A DNA stretch of 64,000 nt. Source: Escherichia phage pEC-M719-6WT.2. Shown in pieces: positions 53,183 to 64,000 of the stretch. Both the position numbers and the translations under genes were made by a program. The notes beneath the pieces are model-generated. The model searched no databases, was not told the DNA's origin, and saw only the letters and a list, made by a program, of their open reading frames with translations. Location: the sequence record OQ845958.1. The stretch is one strand, 5' to 3'. How positions within the stretch are numbered: position 1 is the first letter of the stretch; each line of letters opens with the position of its first letter.

Positions 53183-53517
53183 TTCCTATGGAACTAAACT
53201 GGGATGGCGAAGGTCATTCCCTTAAATTGATTGAAGAACAACGTAACGCTTGGGATGAGCGCTGTGCCCTGGTGAATGGTATTAAGAAAACTTATCAACT
53301 TAACCTCCAGATTGATAATGTTACTCTTGAATTTGGTATGCAGCTATTGCGATTTCTTGAGCTTATTTTTACGGAAAAAGTGAATATAACTTCGTATGGC
53401 GAAGGCAAAACAGTTGATATTAAATTATCATCCTATTATAAAGGTGATTTAATTGAAACCGCCGCTAAAATTCAAGAATTCGCTAAAGATAACGGTTATA
53501 AGGTGATTTTCAAATGA
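53170..53517 (+). CDS. hypothetical protein
   Basis: 115-aa ORF. Confidence 0.4.
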
Positions 53518-54125
53518 ATCCATTAAAAGGTAAAGCGTTATCCTTTAAAGACCGTATGGCCTTGTTAGATAAAGCTCTTTCTCGGGAGACTCCTGAAAGT
53601 CTCGCTGCTAAATTACATGCATACGGTGATTACACCGAATATAATGAAGAAGGTAATTGTGAAATGAATCCGTTTATCACTCGTTTAGAAATGTTACCAG
53701 CACCAGAATCGCGTGAAACCCCCAAAAGCCTCGCTGAAAAATTTAAAGCACATGGATACACATGCGATGAAAAAGATATTCTGGAAGAAGTCCCGGAAAT
53801 CTGTTGGCAGATTGCGCATTGGAATAACAATGAAAAATATCAGCGACGGATTGTATGTGCCGCCAACCGATTTAAGTTAAAAGATGGTGGGACTCTGGTT
53901 ATTCCTGGTGCCAGACATTATTCCAAGGATATGGCAGAAGTGCTTGACCAAGTAAGTGATAAACTTGTGTCAGACCATGTTTGTGGTGATAATCAAGGAT
54001 TCATTGACCAGTACAGCAATTACTGGACCCGCGAAGAAGCAATGATTATTGCGACTTATGCAAATCAAGTGCGTATTGAACGTGGCGGTAGTGAAAAAGA
54101 ACTTTATTCAGAGGACCTTTATTAA
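53514..54125 (+). CDS. hypothetical protein with internal tandem repeat
   Basis: 203 aa; [16 protein letters not shown] and [16 protein letters not shown] repeats; C-terminal CAAN...GARH motif. Confidence 0.45.
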
Positions 54126-54715: not shown

Positions 54716-54991
54716 ATGACTAAATTTGAAATCGTTTCTGAAATTGTTACTATAACTTCAATTTTGATTAAAACCGACCGGGAAGATATTACGATGAAGC
54801 GCGATGTGTTTATCGCGTTTTTGAATGAGTTGGGATTGAGAAATGAGAATGGGAATGAGTTAAACAATGTATCGTTTAACAAATTGTTTAAAAGTTTATC
54901 TGAAGATGAAATTGAACAAATCATTGAACAATTTAACGAAGGATTCGAAGATATACACCGTTATCTTATGATGTATACCTCCGGATTCTAA
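54716..54991 (+). CDS. asiA: anti-sigma70 factor AsiA
   Basis: 91 aa; EIVTITSILIK...FIAFLNE...EQFNEGFE..HRYL.MYT matches remembered T4 AsiA. Confidence 0.85.
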   Translation: MTKFEIVSEIVTITSILIKTDREDITMKRDVFIAFLNELGLRNENGNELNNVSFNKLFKSLSEDEIEQIIEQFNEGFEDIHRYLMMYTSGF

Positions 54992-55641
54992 CGTGTACGC
55001 CCGAGCGTACGACCTGCTTGTCCACACATAGAAGAAAGCCTATCAAAACCAAGGTCGGGTTTTTGCTTATACCAGTACAGTGAGACTGTGCCTGCATAAA
55101 CGTTTTCCAAATTAAAGAATGGGCAGCTGAACATATATGTGAAGCTGCTTTTTTTCTTTGTTGGTAAGAATACAGATTCCACACTGGATTCAAAATAATT
55201 ACCATTAACCCCCGCCAAATATTCCGCTGAAGTCTTATCTATTGGAAACCCACCTAAATTTTTTTCGTCGACTGTATCAGGCAATATCCCCTCGTAACCC
55301 ACCATATCCACAAAGTAGTTAAGGTTAGTTGGTCTAAAAGAATATATTGCTGTAAAGTCTGCCCCACTTGACGAGTGGACTATCTGGATTTGCTCGATAG
55401 CTGCAATTTTAAATCTGTTATCCTGGTCTTGCCTTATCATTTCAGTGTATGAGGCATATGAAGCATCCCTGTACGCATCTAAAAGTGCATCACCTTTATA
55501 CCAGATTACCGCCATTAAAAATAATAGAACAATAACTAGTACCCGGGAAAAAACAACTTTCCCGGTCGCATTATCTTTAAAAATTCTATCAAGAAGTCCA
55601 AAAAGTAGGTCAGGTATTGATATTCCTACTTTTGGTTCCAT
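54988..55641 (-). CDS. t: holin T
   Basis: 217 aa; LDR.FKDNATGKV..SRV, HSSSGADFTAIYSFRP.NLNYFVD matches remembered T4 holin; late promoter and SD upstream. Confidence 0.92.
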   Translation of the reverse strand: MEPKVGISIPDLLFGLLDRIFKDNATGKVVFSRVLVIVLLFLMAVIWYKGDALLDAYRDASYASYTEMIRQDQDNRFKIAAIEQIQIVHSSSGADFTAIYSFRPTNLNYFVDMVGYEGILPDTVDEKNLGGFPIDKTSAEYLAGVNGNYFESSVESVFLPTKKKSSFTYMFSCPFFNLENVYAGTVSLYWYKQKPDLGFDRLSSMCGQAGRTLGRTR

Positions 55642-55659
55642 ACTTTTCTCCTTTAAAGA

Positions 55660-55667
55660 TATTTATA
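55660..55667 (-). promoter_or_regulatory. late promoter TATAAATA for t
   Basis: Reverse complement of TATTTATA on + strand; SD AAGGAG follows. Confidence 0.6.
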
Positions 55668-55678
55668 GCGCTTATGTA

Positions 55679-56458
55679 CTATAACCATGAGCCGTAAATT
55701 GTGCCTGTAGCACCCCATGATGGAGAGGAACCGAATACTGCTCTACCAGGAGCACCACCACCCGACCTGGATAAGTTATTACCCCATCCAGCGCCACCAG
55801 CGCCACCAGCATCACCGCCATTGCCACCGCCAAATTGGTTTGCATTACCACCGCCACCTGGACCATCATAACTAGCATTGCCGCCTGGCCAATTAACACC
55901 ACCGCCGCCGAGACCAAATGGTCTGCCGCCGCCGCCACCTGCTGTAGCATTTGCAGGCCAACTATTCTGTAATGATGCGGCACCGCCGCCACCACCACCG
56001 GAGGCTATCACACCATAATTCCAAATGCGAAGTCGTCCACCAATATCATTTTGGATTACGTCACCACCATTAGTGCCTGGGCTTCCATTTACTGTACCGT
56101 TGCCACCTCGGCCCCACATATGAACACCACCATGAATATTCAAAGTAACATATTCGTTAGGGGTATCACCGTACATAAAGAACAACGGAACATCTTTAGT
56201 ATATGATACTAAGTTGCCTGTGATATTAAACACTATAGGAGCACCGCCGGCTTCAAAGCAACGGTCTCTAAACCATTGTCCGTTAAAGTTGTGGTCTGCT
56301 CCAAGTGTGTGAATAATTTCTCTTGAGCGGCCCGCGAATTGGGACATCCAAGATGGGTTCCCTAGACGTAATTCTCTAGAGGCCGCTGTCATCCAACGTT
56401 GACCTGTTTCAGCCACCGCTGATGTTCCAATCCAACCAGGAATTCCTACTACTGCCAT
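55679..56458 (-). CDS. 38: long tail fibre adhesin gp38 (T2-type, glycine-rich motifs)
   Basis: 259 aa; N-terminus [11 protein letters not shown]...[31 protein letters not shown] matches remembered T2 gp38; poly-Gly motifs. Confidence 0.9.
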
Positions 56459-56487
56459 AAAAACCTCCAGGGCCCGAAGGCCCTTTC

Positions 56488-59400
56488 TTATAATAATGAT
56501 TTAATTAATGCCTTCAACTCAGCAATTTCAGATTTCAATTCCTTGATTTCGTCAGTATGCTCGTTGATAGTAGCAGTATTTAAACCGATAATACCGTTAT
56601 AGTTCAAACGAAGTAAGCCAGTCTCTTTATCTTCAGTCACAAGTTCAGGCAATACCTCTTGAACTTCCTGGGCAATTAAACCGGCAGACGGTTTAACTTC
56701 ATCTGTGACAGAGTTTTTAAGCAGATAAGTATAACCACCTAAGAGTTTAGATTTCTCTTGGGCATTCTCGATAAGCTTAATTTCCGACTTACAACGAATA
56801 TCGGAACGAATATAAACGTCGTTAACATCAATGTTATCACGAACATACATACCTGCATTACAGTGTAAGTTAACACCACCGAATGTCTGAGCAAGTCCGG
56901 CTCGAATACTGAATACACCTTGCCCGTTAGCATACATGTTGTATATGCCATCGCTTTCCCAGACCAATCCGGTGTCATTGTCACCAATAGCAATACACGG
57001 CGTAGTCCAGGCGGGTTCAACACCTACACCCATACCTGCCCATCCTGAAACAATTCTTCCCGGGGAAGTAAACTGCCCGTTGGCCAAAAATTGATAAACC
57101 GCTGCAGGATGTCCTTGTTCTGGTGTATTTTCAGCTGAACGAACAATTATACAACCGGTGGCCCAGGCTGCGGTACCTGAACGTAAAGTACCTAGCTCTA
57201 CGGAGGACGTGTATCCAAACCCTGTAGAAGAACTTCGGCCTTTAACAATCGGGTAATAAACGTTACCATTCAGGTCGCCGTGTTCTACAAATAAAGGAGC
57301 CTCAAGTGCGAATTGTCCGCTAATAGCGCCTGGATTTGTAGCAACCCATCTTGTTCCATTAATCCACAGGCGGTTTTCACTCATTTGAGCTAAATTAAAT
57401 GATTTAGGACTAAATGAAATTACTCCATTATCACTCAAATCTAGACCGGTTGTTGTTTTGTAGTTATAAAAAGATACCGTATCACTTTCACCGCCTTTAC
57501 CAACAAACCAGCTATTAGCACCAGCGACTTCTGAACGGATATGAGAACTATTATTGGCATTTGGGGCTTTAATCAATAAAGCATCATCCGCAGCGGCAAT
57601 AGTCAATTTTCCAGTCATCGTGTCGCCTTCTTTAGCCACACGGGAGGCAATAGCATCATGGATGTTGGTTATATCACCGGCAGAGGTAAATACTTTCCAA
57701 ATATCAGAGAAGATGTTACCATTGCGGGCAATAGTAGCTTCACCGCCACCAACCTGCACGTTATCCGGGAAGTTAACTGTACCGTCAGCATTAAATCTTG
57801 AGGTATGGCCCTGGGTCCCGTCTTCTTTTAAATGGTGTAAAACAAAAGTACCTGAATTAATTTCAGTACCTAAAGACCAAACAGCTTTTCCTTGTAAGAA
57901 TTTCTGCTTAACAATAGGATAATATTTGCTTACAGCGTCATCATCAATTTCCTGAAAAATAGGAGCGGCTTGTGAATATTGAATATCATAACCGCCTGCA
58001 CCAGCACCATGACCACCAAATTTAATAAAACCATTTGCTGCAAAAGTGGTATGGGATAAATCTAAGTCAGGAATAACCACCTTACCTGTATCTAAAGCTA
58101 AACTAAATGGACGAAGGGGTCCGATATCACCGTTCTGTCCTTCGCCAAAAGCAGTAGGAATAATATGAAGACTTCCTTCTGAACGGCGGAAAATAGCACC
58201 GTAATCGTTATTCCAGATGCGGAGCCCATTAACGGCATTTGTAGTAATTTCACCTAATGTATGGACCGCTCTATCAACCCGAATATCTTTTTTAACAATA
58301 AGATTTTCATTAATAGTTTGCTGGCCATTTAATACGGCCTCAATGGTATTATCTGAATTACGCTGAATATATTGCATCCAGCTAATGGCATCAGAAATTT
58401 CCATAATGTTTTTACGGATACCTCCGCTTGGATCAACAAACGTATTACCCCAAACTTTAATATCCATATTATCAACCGAGCTGTATCCTGTTGTGTTGCC
58501 TCTAAACAAAAGAGTCGAAGCGTTGTTGCGGCCATCAATATTAACTGAACCACCAACAACATCAATATTACCAGGAGTAACTAACAAACCGCCAGCGGTG
58601 TTAACGTTTGTAGTGCCCTTACCACGGAAATAGTGGTGATAATTACCGCCTTGATAATACCCTAAAAGAGTTTGACCGTCACCGTACGCGTTATTATCAT
58701 GGTAAGTAACAACAGTGGCTAATGCGTAGTTTTCTGCCGGTGGCGTTGTCATAAGAACTCCGTCCGGAGAATAGCCCATAACCATTTTTCTAAGGCTTTG
58801 CGTTTCTTCTGGTCCGTAGATGAAAGTTCTCGTGCCGTTGTTTACTGTATGGAAATATCCATCCTGATGCCATTTTAACCCGGTGTCATTATCTCCAAGA
58901 GCAATTGAAGCTGTTCCTAATTCAGAATATCCTTTAGAGCCACCTGGAAGACCTACAGAAATAGAATGACCGGCTTTCAATCCACCTGACCATGTAAATG
59001 ACCAAAGATAAGCGTCCAATCCATCTCCAGCATACCAGGTTAACCCGTCATTATCTTTAACTTCATGGAATACACCAGCACCTACGGCATTTCGCATAAC
59101 ACGAAGGTGGTTAATAGCTGTTTCGCTTTCAGACAATGGGCTATTATCAGCCATTGAATAGATATCATAATCGCCGGCCTTCTTCCCGTTTGTAATAACT
59201 TTATCGGTCAAAATTTGTGGGGACGAAATAGATTTCCATGCTGATACTTCAGGTGAAGTGAACAAACCATTGCCTGAAAATGCATAAGTGCTTTCGCTTG
59301 CAGTAGAATAATCTTGTACGCGAATATTAACTACTTGGTTGGTTGCTCCTGCGTTATTAGGAGAAAAGATAATACCACGTTCACGGTCATTGCCATCAAA

Positions 59401-59769
59401 GAAACGAAGGTGAGAAGTTGAGGCACTCTTAGAAATAAGTTCGCCACCGTGGGTCATTATCTGCCCGGCTGCAATGATGTCACGAGTTACACGAGCAATG
59501 CCATTGAGATTGAAATCACCAATTTGAGTAAATACACCGTTAAGAGTATAATCACCAGTTTGATTGTAATTACCGTTATGAATAACATTACCATCAATAT
59601 TACCGCCTTTGGCAAAACCAAGGTCGATAATGGCGCCGGTGTCATCTTTAGTAAAAAGTAAGCGGTCTTTCAGGTTGATAGCCAGTTCACCTTCAGCAAG
59701 AACTGTTGGCGCCGGACGAACGCCGGCAACCTTACTTCTTTTAAATTGTATTTGTTTTAAAGTAGCCAT
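56488..59769 (-). CDS. 37: long tail fibre distal subunit gp37
   Basis: 1093 aa, Gly/Thr/Asn-rich fibre repeats; C-terminal SDIRCK...GGYTY...[15 protein letters not shown] chaperone-like domain. Confidence 0.88.
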
Positions 59770-59777
59770 AATGCCTC

Positions 59778-60425
59778 TTAATAATATCCAAAATCTTGTA
59801 CGGAGTCTTTAAGAACGATTTGGTCAAAACGAGGCACATGGGCCGGGTCTGATGCTGGGTTCCTAGAGAAGAAATTAGGTGCTGACAAGTTACCTGTCAT
59901 TGTTTGCAATGTACTATTATTTAGTTCTACCTGTTGCTGGTTAGTTACATTACCAAGACCAACTTGAGCTTTTGACGGAGTATTCCCTGGAGAAAATACA
60001 CGACCTGTTTCATCATAAATTTGTCGAGCTAACGTATCACCCATAACAGTAAGACGTTTTGCTCCCGTCGTAGTGTCAGGGTCAAAAATAACGAATGGTG
60101 TTCCTGTTTCAGTCTCAAATCCGAATGGTCCTTTAATACGGAAAGATGCGGTAAATGGTGCACCGCCTGTTCTCGCTCCTAACTTAATCCCGTAACCATT
60201 TGAATCGTTAAATGTCAGGCCTTGTTCGAAATATACATTTGCTTTATAATTACCACCAAGAGCTTTAGAAACAAAATCGTTATCGACTGCTTGTGGCTTG
60301 TTATATTCGGAATAAATTTTATAAGTTTTGAAATATAAGTCATTACTGACTGGTGTTAATGGGAAATTACCCTGGTGCCAGAGGACCGAACCTCCGGCTG
60401 TTGAGCCTAGTTTTAAATCTGCCAT
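59778..60425 (-). CDS. 36: long tail fibre subunit gp36
   Basis: 215-aa ORF between gp35 and gp37 with own late promoter. Confidence 0.8.
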   Translation of the reverse strand: MADLKLGSTAGGSVLWHQGNFPLTPVSNDLYFKTYKIYSEYNKPQAVDNDFVSKALGGNYKANVYFEQGLTFNDSNGYGIKLGARTGGAPFTASFRIKGPFGFETETGTPFVIFDPDTTTGAKRLTVMGDTLARQIYDETGRVFSPGNTPSKAQVGLGNVTNQQQVELNNSTLQTMTGNLSAPNFFSRNPASDPAHVPRFDQIVLKDSVQDFGYY

Positions 60426-60462
60426 TTCTTCAAGTCCTCTTCAACCGGCATATGATATTTTG

Positions 60463-60470
60463 TATTTATA
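60463..60470 (-). promoter_or_regulatory. late promoter TATAAATA for gene 36
   Basis: TATTTATA on + strand 38 nt upstream (minus sense) of gp36 ATG; SD AGAGGA. Confidence 0.55.
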
Positions 60471-60473
60471 ACG

Positions 60474-60495
60474 AAAAAAGGACTCCGAAGAGTCC
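60474..60495 (-). terminator. intrinsic terminator (minus sense AGGACTC-ttcg-GAGTCCT + TTTTTT)
   Basis: Hairpin abuts gp35 stop, followed on minus strand by T-run and the gene 36 late promoter. Confidence 0.55.
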
Positions 60496-61625
60496 TATTG
60501 TTTTTCTCGTAGTTCGGCTGCATATATCTTGCCGGCTCTCGGAGCTTGCGCATCCGGGAATGTTACAATTGTATTGCCTGTATTTGTTGTATCGTTTGCA
60601 TATGACATCCTTATGCCGTTGACACCAAATTCAGCTGGTTTGAATGCCGAGTCACCTCTGGTTATCTCACCAATAACAATATTACGTATTGACCCAGTTC
60701 CCACAGCTACAGTCCTTGATGTTACTACTGTAAAGCCATCGGCTCCCGCCGGAATCTCAACATATCTTTCGAAACTCGCCCATGCACCAGCTGGAACGTT
60801 TGCTGCAATATCGATGTTCGTATTTGATATTGGAGCAGTGCTAGGACTTTTAAAGAATCGAATCGAAGTCCTTACGGTCCCCGCGGCTTTCAGTGCAGCG
60901 TCAAATGACATCTGAAACTTCAAGTAAAGCACATCCAAAGGTAAAAGGTTATAGGTGTCCATAGGAGTCACCAGGTCCTCTGTGGGGAACCTTTTAATTG
61001 TGGTTGGTGTTCCATCACCTGTTGATGAATACGTGCTCTCGTCTTCCGTTATGCGCACAGGATAGCCTGTTGCTCCTATATCACTAAAGGTATCATAAAC
61101 GACTTCAAGCGGAGTCGAAACATCCTCAACTAACTTCCCGTCATTATACTTAACATGCTCCGAAACAATTACATTCCGGCCGGTTATGTAAAAAGCCGAG
61201 TACGATGTATCAACTTTATCAATCAGCCATTTCTCTGGGAATGCTCTTGAACCACATTTACGGAACCAATCAATTAATGTCTGTGATGCGTTTAGTTTCC
61301 CTGAAGAAATAAAAGCAATCAATCTTCCGGCTGGAACAGATTCCACAAAGGTGATTAATGCCTGACTGATTGCATCATGTGTGCTAGTTAATGAATAGTT
61401 TTTCGTGTTAACAATTTTATTCGTAGTTGTATCAATTTCCAATAGAGTCAGACCATTACCAAAAGTAGTTGGTCCAATTCGTTCATCCTGAAATTTGATA
61501 TACGATTTCACCGTGGAAAGAGTACAGCTCCCTGCTATACTCATTTTAAATTTAACGGCATTATTTTCTGATATAACTGGCGTTTGGACGTATCCTTGTC
61601 CAAACTCTGCCATAAATTTTTCCAT
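60495..61625 (-). CDS. 35: long tail fibre hinge subunit gp35
   Basis: 376-aa ORF in 34-35-36-37-38 order. Confidence 0.8.
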   Translation of the reverse strand: MEKFMAEFGQGYVQTPVISENNAVKFKMSIAGSCTLSTVKSYIKFQDERIGPTTFGNGLTLLEIDTTTNKIVNTKNYSLTSTHDAISQALITFVESVPAGRLIAFISSGKLNASQTLIDWFRKCGSRAFPEKWLIDKVDTSYSAFYITGRNVIVSEHVKYNDGKLVEDVSTPLEVVYDTFSDIGATGYPVRITEDESTYSSTGDGTPTTIKRFPTEDLVTPMDTYNLLPLDVLYLKFQMSFDAALKAAGTVRTSIRFFKSPSTAPISNTNIDIAANVPAGAWASFERYVEIPAGADGFTVVTSRTVAVGTGSIRNIVIGEITRGDSAFKPAEFGVNGIRMSYANDTTNTGNTIVTFPDAQAPRAGKIYAAELREKQ

Positions 61626-61633
61626 ATTACCTC

Positions 61634-64000
61634 TTATTCAATCCATTCAAACTTAACGGATTTAGTGGTCGGGTCTGGGATGATACGTACGTTACCGATA
61701 CGTAACCAATCAAGAATGGTTAAGTTCCCCATCGTTGTGTTGTCAGCCGGTAATGCGCCAACATCCTCTGCAGACGGAGGGTTATCCGCGGTGTAAACCA
61801 TTGCGAAAGTCGTCCATGCAGATTTATTTTTCTGCCACGTACGAGTATAACGAATAGTACCACCGTTCAATCCAGTTGGATAGCAAACCCAATCTTGATA
61901 GCACGAATCCAGCGTATTACCAAACTGAGTCAATGTACCAGGATATTTAATTTGTTTATCACGAACTGAATAGTCAAACCAGGTTCCACGCAGTTTCTGC
62001 CCAGAGCTACCTAATACTTCATCACCAAGTGTACCATCATCATTACGATAACGAATAGCGGGCGAGGCAAAAGTTCCGTTTTCAGTTAACCAACCAGAAG
62101 CATTCCAAACTTCATCAGTTACACCAGCAGGTTTAGTTTGAACCGTATCAATGTTTACTTGACGTTTTAACTTCATTGTCCAATAACCAGGGAACTGGCT
62201 ATAAGTCGGTTCATCATTGATATCGACAGACCAGAAGCCAACAGTATCTGCAGTCGGAGCTTGCGCGATAAGACTTGGTTTCGTACCAAATACACGGACC
62301 GGAGCATTCACACGGAGCACACCAGACATTGTATCACCGGCTTGGTTAACAAAGTTTCTATCAACAATTTCTATTGCGTTTTTCTCGGTCAGAACTTTAA
62401 ATGCACCGCCACCATTTGCTATGATATTGCCAGCATCAAGAGTTTTGAGCACTAAATTCTGTGAGTTATCACCCAGAGACAAAGTTGCACCAGAAACTTC
62501 ACCCGTCGTGGTTGCGATAGTACGACCATTTAGAACATAATTATTTTTGGCTTGAACATCGTTTCCGGCGCTGAGGTTGTTCAATACAGCAGCATTACCC
62601 GAGGCGGTGTTTAATGTCAATACGTTAGTCGTATCACCAATAGTCATTGTCGTTCCGGTGGAAGGAGCAGTGATTTTCCACTTGTTAGTTCCGTTAACAA
62701 CATTCACAGTTCCGAACGTCGAAGTACCAGCCGTTACATCAGTAAACACCGCAGTGCTCGTCGATACAACCGGAGCAGAGATATTTGTCTGCTTAGTAAG
62801 GGATAATACACCTTCAACAGTCTGAGCAATATCACGACGAATAAACTGGGTCGAATCGAGGTTATCCAGTTTTTCAGCATTAACAGCCATCGCATTTATC
62901 GGTAAGAAGTTTTGCAATACGCGGTTTAATTCGTAAGGCGAAACTGCATATCCAGATTTCGCATAGCTAACCAGTTTACTTGGGTCCGGGGTATACACAC
63001 CATTTTCATATGTAAATCCCGCGCCCGTCGTTGTAGTTGCGGCCGAAGTAGCTGCACCGGAAGATAAACGAACAAATCCACGCAGTGTTTCAGATGCTTC
63101 CCAAGTTGTTTCCGTTTGGGCAATATATTTCAGCGCAGACGGACTAATGGCCAAGACTTTTGATGTGCCTGCTGTTGCTTCTGTGTTTGTCGCGATGCGA
63201 ACAATACCTTCGGCGTTTTCAGTGGCTTTTTTCGACATCAATTTAAGCGGGGTAACGATTGTTTTATCGTCAGTGCCGGTATTGACTTCACCCTGAGTCG
63301 CTAATCTTGCTGTACCACGTTGAGTCTCATTTGCTTCAAGAATATTCAGGCTATAATGGTCCCAGAGCGTCCCTGTTTCTACTAAACCACTTAATGCATT
63401 AACAGAAGTACGAGCAGTATTATTAAATCTATTTTTAATTTTTAATGGAGTTGAGATACGAGTATCATCAGTTCCAGTATCAAATTCTGATTGCGTAGCA
63501 ATCTCGGCTATGCCGGTCAACGTTTCTGATGCTTTACGGTCATTTAACGTTTTAGGAGTCACAGCTCTGGTATAATCGGTTCCTGCATCTGTTTCAACCT
63601 GAGTCGCAATCTCGATTAAACCGATACGAGAATCAAGAGCAGTTTTGCGATGCAACATTTCTGGGGTAACGACTGCGTTTGCCCAGCCAGATTGAGAAGT
63701 ACCAGCGATTACTTCACTTTCAACCGCAAGAATAACCGCGCCTTGCTGGGTGTAAGTAGCTTTGTACTGGTCAAGAGCTTTCGGAGAAACAACCAGATTA
63801 ACCGTATTTTTATTATAAACGTTTGTACCATTTAATTCACGCGAAGCAGCAGGAGTTGCACCAGTCGTTGAAACGTAAGTTACAATACCGGATAGCGATT
63901 CTGAGCCCTGGCGAGCTTGCAGTTTCTTTGGAGTTATAATTGTGGTATCATCTACACCCGCATTGGTTTCTTGCTGTGTGGCGAGTTCTGCGAGCCCACG
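61634..64000 (-). CDS. 34: long tail fibre proximal subunit gp34, C-terminal part (N-terminus beyond window)
   Basis: Frame hand-checked open from 61634 to the window edge; repeated ATQ/GTDD fibre motifs. Confidence 0.85.
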   Translation of the reverse strand, partial: RGLAELATQQETNAGVDDTTIITPKKLQARQGSESLSGIVTYVSTTGATPAASRELNGTNVYNKNTVNLVVSPKALDQYKATYTQQGAVILAVESEVIAGTSQSGWANAVVTPEMLHRKTALDSRIGLIEIATQVETDAGTDYTRAVTPKTLNDRKASETLTGIAEIATQSEFDTGTDDTRISTPLKIKNRFNNTARTSVNALSGLVETGTLWDHYSLNILEANETQRGTARLATQGEVNTGTDDKTIVTPLKLMSKKATENAEGIVRIATNTEATAGTSKVLAISPSALKYIAQTETTWEASETLRGFVRLSSGAATSAATTTTGAGFTYENGVYTPDPSKLVSYAKSGYAVSPYELNRVLQNFLPINAMAVNAEKLDNLDSTQFIRRDIAQTVEGVLSLTKQTNISAPVVSTSTAVFTDVTAGTSTFGTVNVVNGTNKWKITAPSTGTTMTIGDTTNVLTLNTASGNAAVLNNLSAGNDVQAKNNYVLNGRTIATTTGEVSGATLSLGDNSQNLVLKTLDAGNIIANGGGAFKVLTEKNAIEIVDRNFVNQAGDTMSGVLRVNAPVRVFGTKPSLIAQAPTADTVGFWSVDINDEPTYSQFPGYWTMKLKRQVNIDTVQTKPAGVTDEVWNASGWLTENGTFASPAIRYRNDDGTLGDEVLGSSGQKLRGTWFDYSVRDKQIKYPGTLTQFGNTLDSCYQDWVCYPTGLNGGTIRYTRTWQKNKSAWTTFAMVYTADNPPSAEDVGALPADNTTMGNLTILDWLRIGNVRIIPDPTTKSVKFEWIE

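Follow-up and report, generated by a model that had tools for sequence, protein, structure and literature searches.

The gp37-gp38 locus of Escherichia phage pEC-M719-6WT.2 very probably encodes a distal long-tail-fibre tip of the T2 type, with OmpF as its most likely receptor

The 64,000-nucleotide stretch of Escherichia phage pEC-M719-6WT.2 analysed here (record OQ845958.1, called the window below) contains, at positions 55679-56900, a locus that a first-pass annotation made from the letters alone had assigned to a T2-type receptor-binding tip. Based on the analyses below, the region very probably encodes a T2-type tip for the distal end of the long tail fibre, in which a self-cleaved gp37 is capped by gp38 and the loops of gp38 bind a receptor, most likely OmpF; nothing that we found contradicts a T2-type architecture. 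The tip is not a discovery, because genetic studies of T2-type adhesins since the 1980s (work of 1986-89 by Drexler, Riede and Henning, cited by both PMC3157838 and PMC12892980) and gp38 crystal structures from 2018 (Dunne 2018, as described in PMC6851490) and 2026 (PMC12892980) established it: the architecture of the tip, its chaperone that cleaves itself, the polyglycine fold and what the hypervariable loops do are all already known. The gp37/gp38 tip raises no new biological question and its relevance is practical only, in that this locus determines the host range of a therapeutic-type E. coli phage and the gp38 sequence allows its receptor (probably OmpF) to be predicted.

Both proteins lie where the first-pass annotation had placed them, on the minus strand, with a 259-aa open reading frame at 55679-56458 and, at 56488-56900, part of a 1093-aa frame that spans 56488-59769. 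The former is gene 38 (55679..56458, 259 aa plus stop), whose product, the T2-type long-tail-fibre adhesin gp38, matches Pfam GP38 (PF05268) over residues 47-259 (273.2 bits, 2.3e-81, cut-off 25) and Pfam Gp38_N (PF21721) over residues 1-42 (74.1 bits, 8.8e-21, cut-off 25). These scores, and the 46.9 bits (cut-off 22) obtained for gp37 as described below, are far beyond chance level. In addition, gp38 matches PHROG 2056 ("tail fiber protein; host specificity", 4.7e-108) and the solved adhesin structures of phage PP01 (9V85, residues 39-257, 2.5e-73) and phage S16 (6F45_D, 1.6e-50). The exact match in GenBank, WMU95942.1 from Escherichia phage pEC-M719-6WT.2, is labelled "hypothetical protein", a label that could be corrected to adhesin.

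The attachment domain at the gp38 N-terminus (residues 1-42, 56333..56458, minus strand) contains the Trp prongs W9, W22, and W37. In an alignment of 11 adhesins that includes S16, T2, T6, M1, and AR1, these three residues and the glycine columns are invariant; in the S16 structure (6F45), three Trp residues dock gp38 into gp37 (PMC6851490). The receptor-binding part (residues 47-259, 55682..56320, minus strand) holds the glycine-rich motifs and the hypervariable loops. Glycine makes up 26% of gp38 overall, 38% of residues 116-250, and 12% of residues 1-115, with runs of six (154-159), five (174-178), and four (184-187 and 201-204) glycines. Among 27 distinct homologues, the mean column entropy across residues 116-240 is 0.7 bits where the residue is glycine and 1.7 bits where it is not, and glycine columns 154-158 and 174-178 are invariant. 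The description of gp38 as a conserved attachment region followed by glycine-rich motifs with variable spacers is thus borne out by both the Pfam matches and the entropy values; it can be refined in that a beta-helix domain occupies the stretch that separates the attachment domain from the glycine motifs. The full-length alignment of gp38 to 9V85 and 6F45_D argues for a fold that combines this beta-helix with a polyglycine-II sandwich.

The closest solved structure is the gp38 receptor-binding domain (RBD) of the E. coli O157 phage PP01 (9V85; PMC12892980), whose loops A-E correspond one-to-one to segments of the protein studied here. By transferring the PP01 loops via the AR1 row of the alignment, we placed (all on the minus strand) loop A at residues 122-126 (TVNGS, 56081..56095; PP01 W119-I124), loop B at residues 163-172 (55943..55972; PP01 Q161-V170), where entropy is high, loop C at residues 186-190 (GGVNW, 55889..55903; PP01 N184-W189), loop D at residues 205-209 (NANQF, 55832..55846; PP01 N204-Y209), and loop E at residues 225-231 (WGNNLSR, 55766..55786; PP01 N225-S231). 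In PP01, contact of loops A-E with the receptor was shown by experiment and specificity is governed by loop E (PMC12892980). The segments of variable sequence that separate the glycine motifs, which had been proposed as the specificity-encoding part, correspond to these recognition loops and probably have that role. PP01 itself binds loops 5 and 7 of OmpC; its gp38 loops differ in sequence from those described here, and its RBD is ∼50% identical, as judged via the near-identical AR1 protein.

When RBD identity was computed over gp38 residues 116-259, the highest values were found with adhesins of OmpF-dependent phages: 91% with Bas47 AlbertHofmann, 90% with fPS-2, 89% with FL33, and about 90% with RB51, the last counted from listed substitutions. 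FL33 depends on OmpF/TolC; Bas47 AlbertHofmann depends on OmpF as confirmed by complementation (PMC8594841), fPS-2 needs OmpF plus the LPS core (PMC7917993), and RB51 needs OmpF, FhuA, and the LPS core (PMC3157838). In contrast, RBD identity is 57% to T2 (FadL/OmpF), 50% to AR1, 49% to M1, 49% to S16, and 48% to T6, a range of 48-57% that covers the receptor types FadL/OmpF (T2), OmpC, OmpA, and Tsx. Since identity is 89-91% to OmpF-dependent phages and 48-57% to the other types, gp38 most likely recognizes the porin OmpF, possibly with LPS core. Lutz et al. reported that the receptor is predictable from gp38 phylogeny.

The gp38 protein is not identical to any of these OmpF-group adhesins. 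The adhesins of Bas47, the Yersinia phages fPS-2 and fPS-90, FL31/FL33, and RB51 have the same GRMs and the same loop C, which is identical across all aligned OmpF-group adhesins, and RB51 and FL31 gp38 fall in the same 90% cluster as the protein studied here. Within residues 116-259, OmpF-group adhesins differ from it by 9-14 substitutions, most of which fall in loops A, B, D, and E or at residues 220 and 223. Typed OmpF binders have Y/T/S where gp38 has N205/A206/N207 in loop D; where gp38 has A220 and A223 between loops D and E they have R or W and D, respectively; and in loop E they have H where gp38 has N228. Among ∼38 compared relatives, N207 and A223 are each present in none, and N228 is found in only two (L012 and L013).

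These differences bear on an alternative in which the architecture is the same and the receptor is another porin, FadL, or LPS alone, the loop changes of this allele having switched specificity. One- or two-residue changes in hypervariable segments can alter receptor use, as seen when single-residue changes switch receptors between SV76 and T2 and between PST and T6 (PMC3157838), and pEC-M719-6WT.2 is said to have a wide lytic range (PMC11769469). Against a switch to another receptor, gp38 shares all of loop C and most of loops A and B with the OmpF group, and the RBD is 89-91% identical to those of four independently typed OmpF-dependent phages and at most 57% identical to those of other classes. 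We therefore consider a non-OmpF receptor unlikely and OmpF the probable one. A further proposal, that N205-A206-N207, A220/A223, and N228 shift or broaden recognition beyond that of typed OmpF-binding adhesins, is a speculative one to which we give little weight; if it were true, these residues could change the range of OmpF alleles that is recognized or add a second receptor, and altered recognition might contribute to the reported wide lytic range.

The attachment domain of gp38 and the shaft of gp37 are JS98/NC-G-like and belong to another lineage than those of the OmpF-group phages, and the joining of these parts to an OmpF-type RBD shows module shuffling.

Gene 37 (56488..59769, minus strand, 1093 aa plus stop) encodes the distal long-tail-fibre subunit gp37, which matches PHROG 1699 (E=0), is 94% identical to gp37 of phage NC-G, and is matched exactly by GenBank WMU95943.1 from pEC-M719-6WT.2. 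Positions 56488-56900 encode its last ∼137 residues. The proposal that this C-terminus is an S74-peptidase-like chaperone agrees with several results. Pfam Peptidase_S74 (PF13884) matches residues 989-1045 (core at 56635-56805, minus strand; 46.9 bits, 3.3e-12), and the motifs quoted in the first-pass annotation are found at residues 989-994 (SDIRCK), 1011-1015 (GGYTY), and 1030-1044 (the 15-residue motif). S16 gp37 (6F45_A) also aligns with the C-terminus (1.8e-30). S989 (56803-56805) and K994 (56788-56790), a Ser at the cleavage site and a Lys five residues on, line up with the position at which S16 gp37 is cut, S^SDRRIK. The spacing of Ser and Lys at the start of the domain is the same in endosialidase-type Peptidase_S74 domains, including that of human MYRF; the MYRF auto-processing domain (7DC3) aligned ADLRAK to SDIRCK and GVIAQEVKEILPE to a 13-residue stretch of the gp37 C-terminus, both in one weak alignment (E 0.029). 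The S-D-x-R-x-K pattern is invariant in 11 gp37 proteins, including those of T2, T6, M1, AR1, S16, JS98, NC-G, Bas47, FL33, and fPS-2.

S16 gp37 is cleaved between DLNVS and SDRRIKK, with release of 113 residues (PMC7917993), and C-terminal cleavage of T2 and T6 gp37 has been reported (PMC3157838). By comparison, the DVYIR-SDIRCK motif predicts that gp37 sheds its final 105 residues (989-1093, 56491..56805, minus strand), an intramolecular chaperone fragment on the basis of PF13884 and the S16 alignment, and that a docking face for gp38 is thereby exposed. Residues 984-988 (DVYIR, 56806..56820, minus strand) would become the C-terminus and docking strand, a role that we infer from S16 and the fPS phages (PMC7917993). 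DVYIR is conserved in gp37 of T2, T6, M1, fPS-2, FL33, Bas47, JS98, and NC-G, and is replaced by DVYVR in AR1 and DLNVS in S16. Removal of the S74 domain from this T-even tail fibre would make a docking site for a second protein, the adhesin, whereas elsewhere it simply matures a tailspike.

The domains of gp37 and gp38 allow two further alternatives to be weighed. It has been stated that T2-type gp38 serves first as a chaperone (PMC7917993), and the name "distal long tail fiber assembly catalyst" or "chaperone" is still given to close homologues in several database records, so gp38 could be a T4-type assembly chaperone only, outside the virion, with the gp37 tip itself binding the receptor. 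This is highly improbable: gp38 matches adhesin Pfam families and solved adhesin structures over its full length, its docking tryptophans are invariant, and gp37 ends in a removable S74 domain without the receptor-binding needle of the T4 type. The matches of both Pfam domains above threshold, PHROG 2056, 9V85, and 6F45_D instead support the assignment of gp38 as a T2-type adhesin, and its 26% glycine content and the S74-ended gp37 do not fit a T4-type pair of gp38 chaperone and gp37 needle tip. Equally remote is the notion, which the moderate Pfam score of 46.9 bits might encourage, that the gp37 C-terminus is a decayed, uncleaved relic with gp38 attached elsewhere or not at all, as the end-to-end alignment is with S16 gp37, a known auto-cleaver (PMC7917993), the cleavage-site Ser and Lys are invariant in 11 divergent gp37 proteins, and over its last ∼140 residues gp37 has 100% identity with the NC-G protein, beside a mosaic shaft with windows down to 74% identity to NC-G and 28% to JS98, a contrast that indicates purifying selection on the C-terminus.

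By analogy with relatives, a T2-type tip that is assembled from these parts would form as follows. The gp37 chains (1093 aa) would trimerise, aided by their own C-terminal Peptidase_S74 intramolecular chaperone domain, and each folded chain would then cut its own R988-S989 bond by means of S989 and K994. Departure of the last 105 residues would expose a flat trimeric face ending in DVYIR. One gp38 monomer (259 aa) would then cap the face of the gp37 trimer in a 3:1 arrangement, with W9, W22, and W37 of the three-helix attachment domain entering three symmetry-related pockets. From the beta-helix, ten glycine-rich stretches would pack as polyglycine-II helices, and the short hypervariable loops A-E that link them would point outward from the fibre to bind the receptor in the outer membrane.

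This predicted assembly follows that of S16 gp37(3)-gp38 (6F45; Dunne et al. 2018, as described in PMC6851490), in which the gene order is the same, gp38 has the same three domains (one for attachment with Trp prongs, then a beta-helix, and lastly a polyglycine-II sandwich), and gp37 has the same C-terminal intramolecular chaperone with the S-D-x-R-x-K cleavage motif. The two systems differ in that S16 gp38 is only 51% identical to the protein studied here, the docking strand is DLNVS in S16 and DVYIR here, the released fragment is 113 aa in S16 and a predicted 105 aa here, and the S16 receptor is Salmonella OmpC. The prototype T2 likewise has an adhesin-capped fibre, a gp37 C-terminus that is proteolytically removed (PMC3157838), and a nearly identical 11-residue gp37 motif, whereas its gp38 is only 53% identical, its gp37 is 1341 aa compared with 1093 aa, and it uses FadL/OmpF.

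The genes around the tip are in the canonical order 34-35-36-37-38-t/asiA...motA. Gene 38 lies directly downstream of gene 37 and upstream of the holin gene t, with asiA convergent, and the order 36-37-38-t is the same in NC-G, JS98, T2, T6, and S16. The frame at 61634-63658 was considered as a truncated gene 34 and rejected as a listing artefact, as it is open to the window edge. Antisense frames within gene 38 (55672-55998, 55701-55871, and 55717-55875) were judged to be by-products of a GGN-rich coding strand. Scans of the whole window for tRNA genes and Rfam families found nothing.

The T4-type late-promoter consensus TATAAATA is found at 60463..60470 (minus strand), 38 nt upstream of gene 36, and likely drives transcription of genes 36-37-38. 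This call is made from position only, because the motif is not enriched in the whole window (5 observed, 5.4 expected). Only two copies of the motif are noteworthy, those just upstream of genes 36 and t. Between the stop codon of gene 37 and the Shine-Dalgarno sequence of gene 38 (GGAGG), the intercistronic region contains a hairpin, AGGGCC-UUCG-GGCCCU (56469..56484, minus strand). It recurs in relatives, where 3 of 5 pairs show compensatory changes and 90.7% of cells are paired.

The canonical T-even long-tail-fibre block lies on the minus strand at 54988-61625, where we located gene 35 (60495-61625), gene 36 (59778-60425), gene 37 (56488-59769, 1093 aa), gene 38 (55679-56458, 259 aa) and the holin gene t (54988-55641). 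Gene 34 extends past the end of the window, asiA is convergent on the plus strand, and motA and the topoisomerase gene 52 are found farther along. The interval 55679-56900, which the first-pass annotation had read as a T2-type receptor-binding tip, is precisely gene 38 plus the final ∼137 codons of gene 37. That observation is confirmed and had been interpreted correctly. It concerns a textbook system that was already known (Henning-lab genetics, 1986-89; Trojet 2011; the S16 structure, 2018; the BASEL collection, 2021; Lutz 2025; PP01, 2026), and the exact sequences are already public, as gp38 and gp37 are exact matches to WMU95942.1 and WMU95943.1 of pEC-M719-6WT.2 (170,441 bp), labeled "hypothetical protein" and "tail fiber", respectively, in GenBank. 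Two papers refer to the phage by the accession OQ845958.1. Many close gp38 homologues are mislabeled "assembly catalyst/chaperone" or "tail protein and peptidase".

The gp38 protein matches the Pfam families Gp38_N (residues 1-42, 8.8e-21) and GP38 (residues 47-259, 2.3e-81), PHROG 2056, "tail fiber protein; host specificity" (4.7e-108), and the structures of the PP01 gp38 receptor-binding domain (9V85, residues 39-257, 2.5e-73) and of S16 gp38 (6F45_D, residues 8-259, 1.6e-50). When it was aligned with ten adhesins (NC-G, Bas47, FL33, fPS-2, T2, T6, M1, JS98, AR1, and S16), W9, W22, and W37, the glycine runs at residues 154-158 and 174-178, and the GGGGGRP motif were invariant. The authors of the S16 structure describe the three gp38 tryptophans as prongs that enter three equivalent pockets of the gp37 trimer (PMC6851490). 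Glycine accounts for 38% of residues 116-250 versus 12% of residues 1-115, and across 27 different full-length homologues, taken from references and IMG/VR loci, the mean column entropy within residues 116-240 was 0.7 bits at glycine positions compared with 1.7 bits elsewhere. The variable stretches fall on the receptor-recognition loops A-E of PP01 gp38, here residues 122-126 (TVNGS), 163-172 (10 residues), 186-190 (GGVNW), 205-209 (NANQF), and 225-231 (WGNNLSR). In PP01, OmpC was cross-linked to loops D and E, and specificity is governed by loop E (PMC12892980). The proposed layout, an attachment domain followed by glycine motifs with variable segments between them, is borne out, the suggested alignment with T2 and S16 places the tryptophans and glycine runs among the invariant positions, and the segments named as the likely specificity-encoding part coincide with known receptor loops.

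To predict a receptor, the receptor-binding half of gp38 (RBD, residues 116-259) was compared with that of adhesins from receptor-typed phages. Its identity was 91% to Bas47 AlbertHofmann (OmpF, complemented; PMC8594841), 90% to fPS-2 (OmpF plus LPS core), and 89% to FL33 (OmpF/TolC; PMC12032242), versus 57% to T2 (FadL/OmpF), 50% to AR1 (OmpC), 49% to both M1 (OmpA) and S16 (OmpC), and 48% to T6 (Tsx). RB51, which requires OmpF, FhuA, and LPS core, shares one 90% cluster with the window gp38, and its RBD is ∼90% identical as counted from a substitution list. Because Lutz et al. found that the receptor is predictable from gp38 phylogeny, the 89-91% RBD identity to OmpF-dependent phages makes OmpF the most likely receptor. 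We hold this assignment to be probable and place it no higher, since receptor use can change by one or two substitutions in the hypervariable segments between glycine motifs. The residues that set the window gp38 apart from the typed binders are S126, A161, P168/A169, G199, G203, N205/A206/N207, A220, A223, and N228; N207 and A223 were absent from all ∼38 relatives compared, and N228 was shared with just two relatives, L012 and L013, both from IMG/VR. It is possible, though improbable, that these few allele-specific loop residues change the receptor or allele range.

The gp37 C-terminus contains the motifs quoted by the first-pass annotation (SDIRCK at residues 989-994, GGYTY at 1011-1015, and a 15-residue motif at 1030-1044), and the S74-peptidase-like chaperone signature that it had assigned there is recovered as a Pfam Peptidase_S74 match (residues 989-1045, 3.3e-12) and as an alignment of residues 923-1092 with the crystallized S16 gp37 fragment (1.8e-30). 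Within SDIRCK, the residues S, D, R, and K do not vary among 11 aligned gp37 C-termini. The auto-processing domain of human MYRF (7DC3), a weak match (E 0.029), has ADLRAK opposite SDIRCK and GVIAQEVKEILPE opposite a 13-residue gp37 stretch. This agrees with the relationship known for that domain family. In S16 gp37, the intramolecular chaperone cleaves itself between DLNVS and SDRRIKK, which releases 113 residues and exposes the gp38 docking surface, and the cleavage sequence in the fPS phages is DVYIR^SDGRLKI (PMC7917993). The window gp37 has DVYIR (residues 984-988) followed by S989-D-I-R-C-K994, and cleavage at the predicted site would yield a mature protein of 988 aa and 105 released residues, encoded at 56491-56805.

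Over its final ∼140 residues, gp37 has 100% identity to NC-G and 92-100% to JS98. Its shaft is a mosaic (residues 401-600 and 701-950), with 50-residue windows ranging from 100% down to 74% identity versus NC-G and down to 28% versus JS98, and the N-terminus and last ∼140 residues keep 92-100%. Given this combination of a conserved end and a mosaic shaft, the chaperone and docking module is under strong constraint. For gp38, JS98 is 98% identical over the N-terminal half and only 72% over the RBD, while L012 and L013 are 94-96% identical over the RBD and only 78-81% over the N-terminal half; 174-aa proteins of the RB16/RB43 type have only the first ∼64 residues in common with it. These alignments indicate that attachment and receptor-binding modules are shuffled among phages, and shuffling of these kinds was already described by Trojet et al. 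(2011). Among the phages of the local collection, MN01, vB_YenM_P8, and EAWsc9 match the backbone at 94-98% identity, and the closest fibre module is that of phage NC-G (DNA 88%, gp37 94% aa, gp38 98.5% aa), a difference that is the usual tail-fibre mosaicism.

Local GC content peaks over 55500-56500 (0.46-0.49 versus ∼0.40 in the flanks) and GC skew is strongly negative across gene 38, both of which we attribute to GGN glycine codons, as we do the spurious antisense or out-of-frame ORFs of 52-108 aa over this gene. At 53514-54125, a plus-strand ORF of 203 aa and unknown function matches PHROG 839 from residue 48; its N-terminus holds an internal near-repeat of two 16-residue copies, suggestive of a short tandem duplication when compared with the family profile.

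On the minus strand, the stop codon of gene 37 and the Shine-Dalgarno sequence of gene 38 (GGAGG) are separated by a stable, GC-rich hairpin with a UUCG loop (AGGGCC-UUCG-GGCCCU, 56469-56484). Equivalent hairpins occupy the same place in T2, T6, M1, S16, JS98, RB16-type phages, and IMG/VR relatives; their stems vary in sequence, with compensatory changes in three of five pairs and 90.7% of cells paired. In a shuffle control, 0/500 shuffles attained the observed values for percentage of paired cells, cells altered on both sides, or covariation score, and 15/500 attained that for pairs altered on both sides; further pair types were no more numerous than in the shuffles. Like the CUUCGG hairpins between T4 cistrons, the gene 37/38 hairpin may serve to stabilize mRNA or to insulate translation. 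A second UUCG hairpin (AGGACUC-UUCG-GAGUCCU plus a U-run, 60479-60496, minus strand) begins within the stop codon of gene 35, at its final two bases, and is followed, upstream of gene 36, by the putative late-promoter motif TATAAATA (60463-60470, minus strand), so that 60463-60496 looks like a terminator-like element and then a late promoter. Gene 38 and t are separated by 37 nt, and this spacer contains another putative late-promoter motif, TATAAATA (55660-55667, minus strand), which precedes the t start codon by 18 nt; in fPS-2, a late promoter is annotated at this same position.
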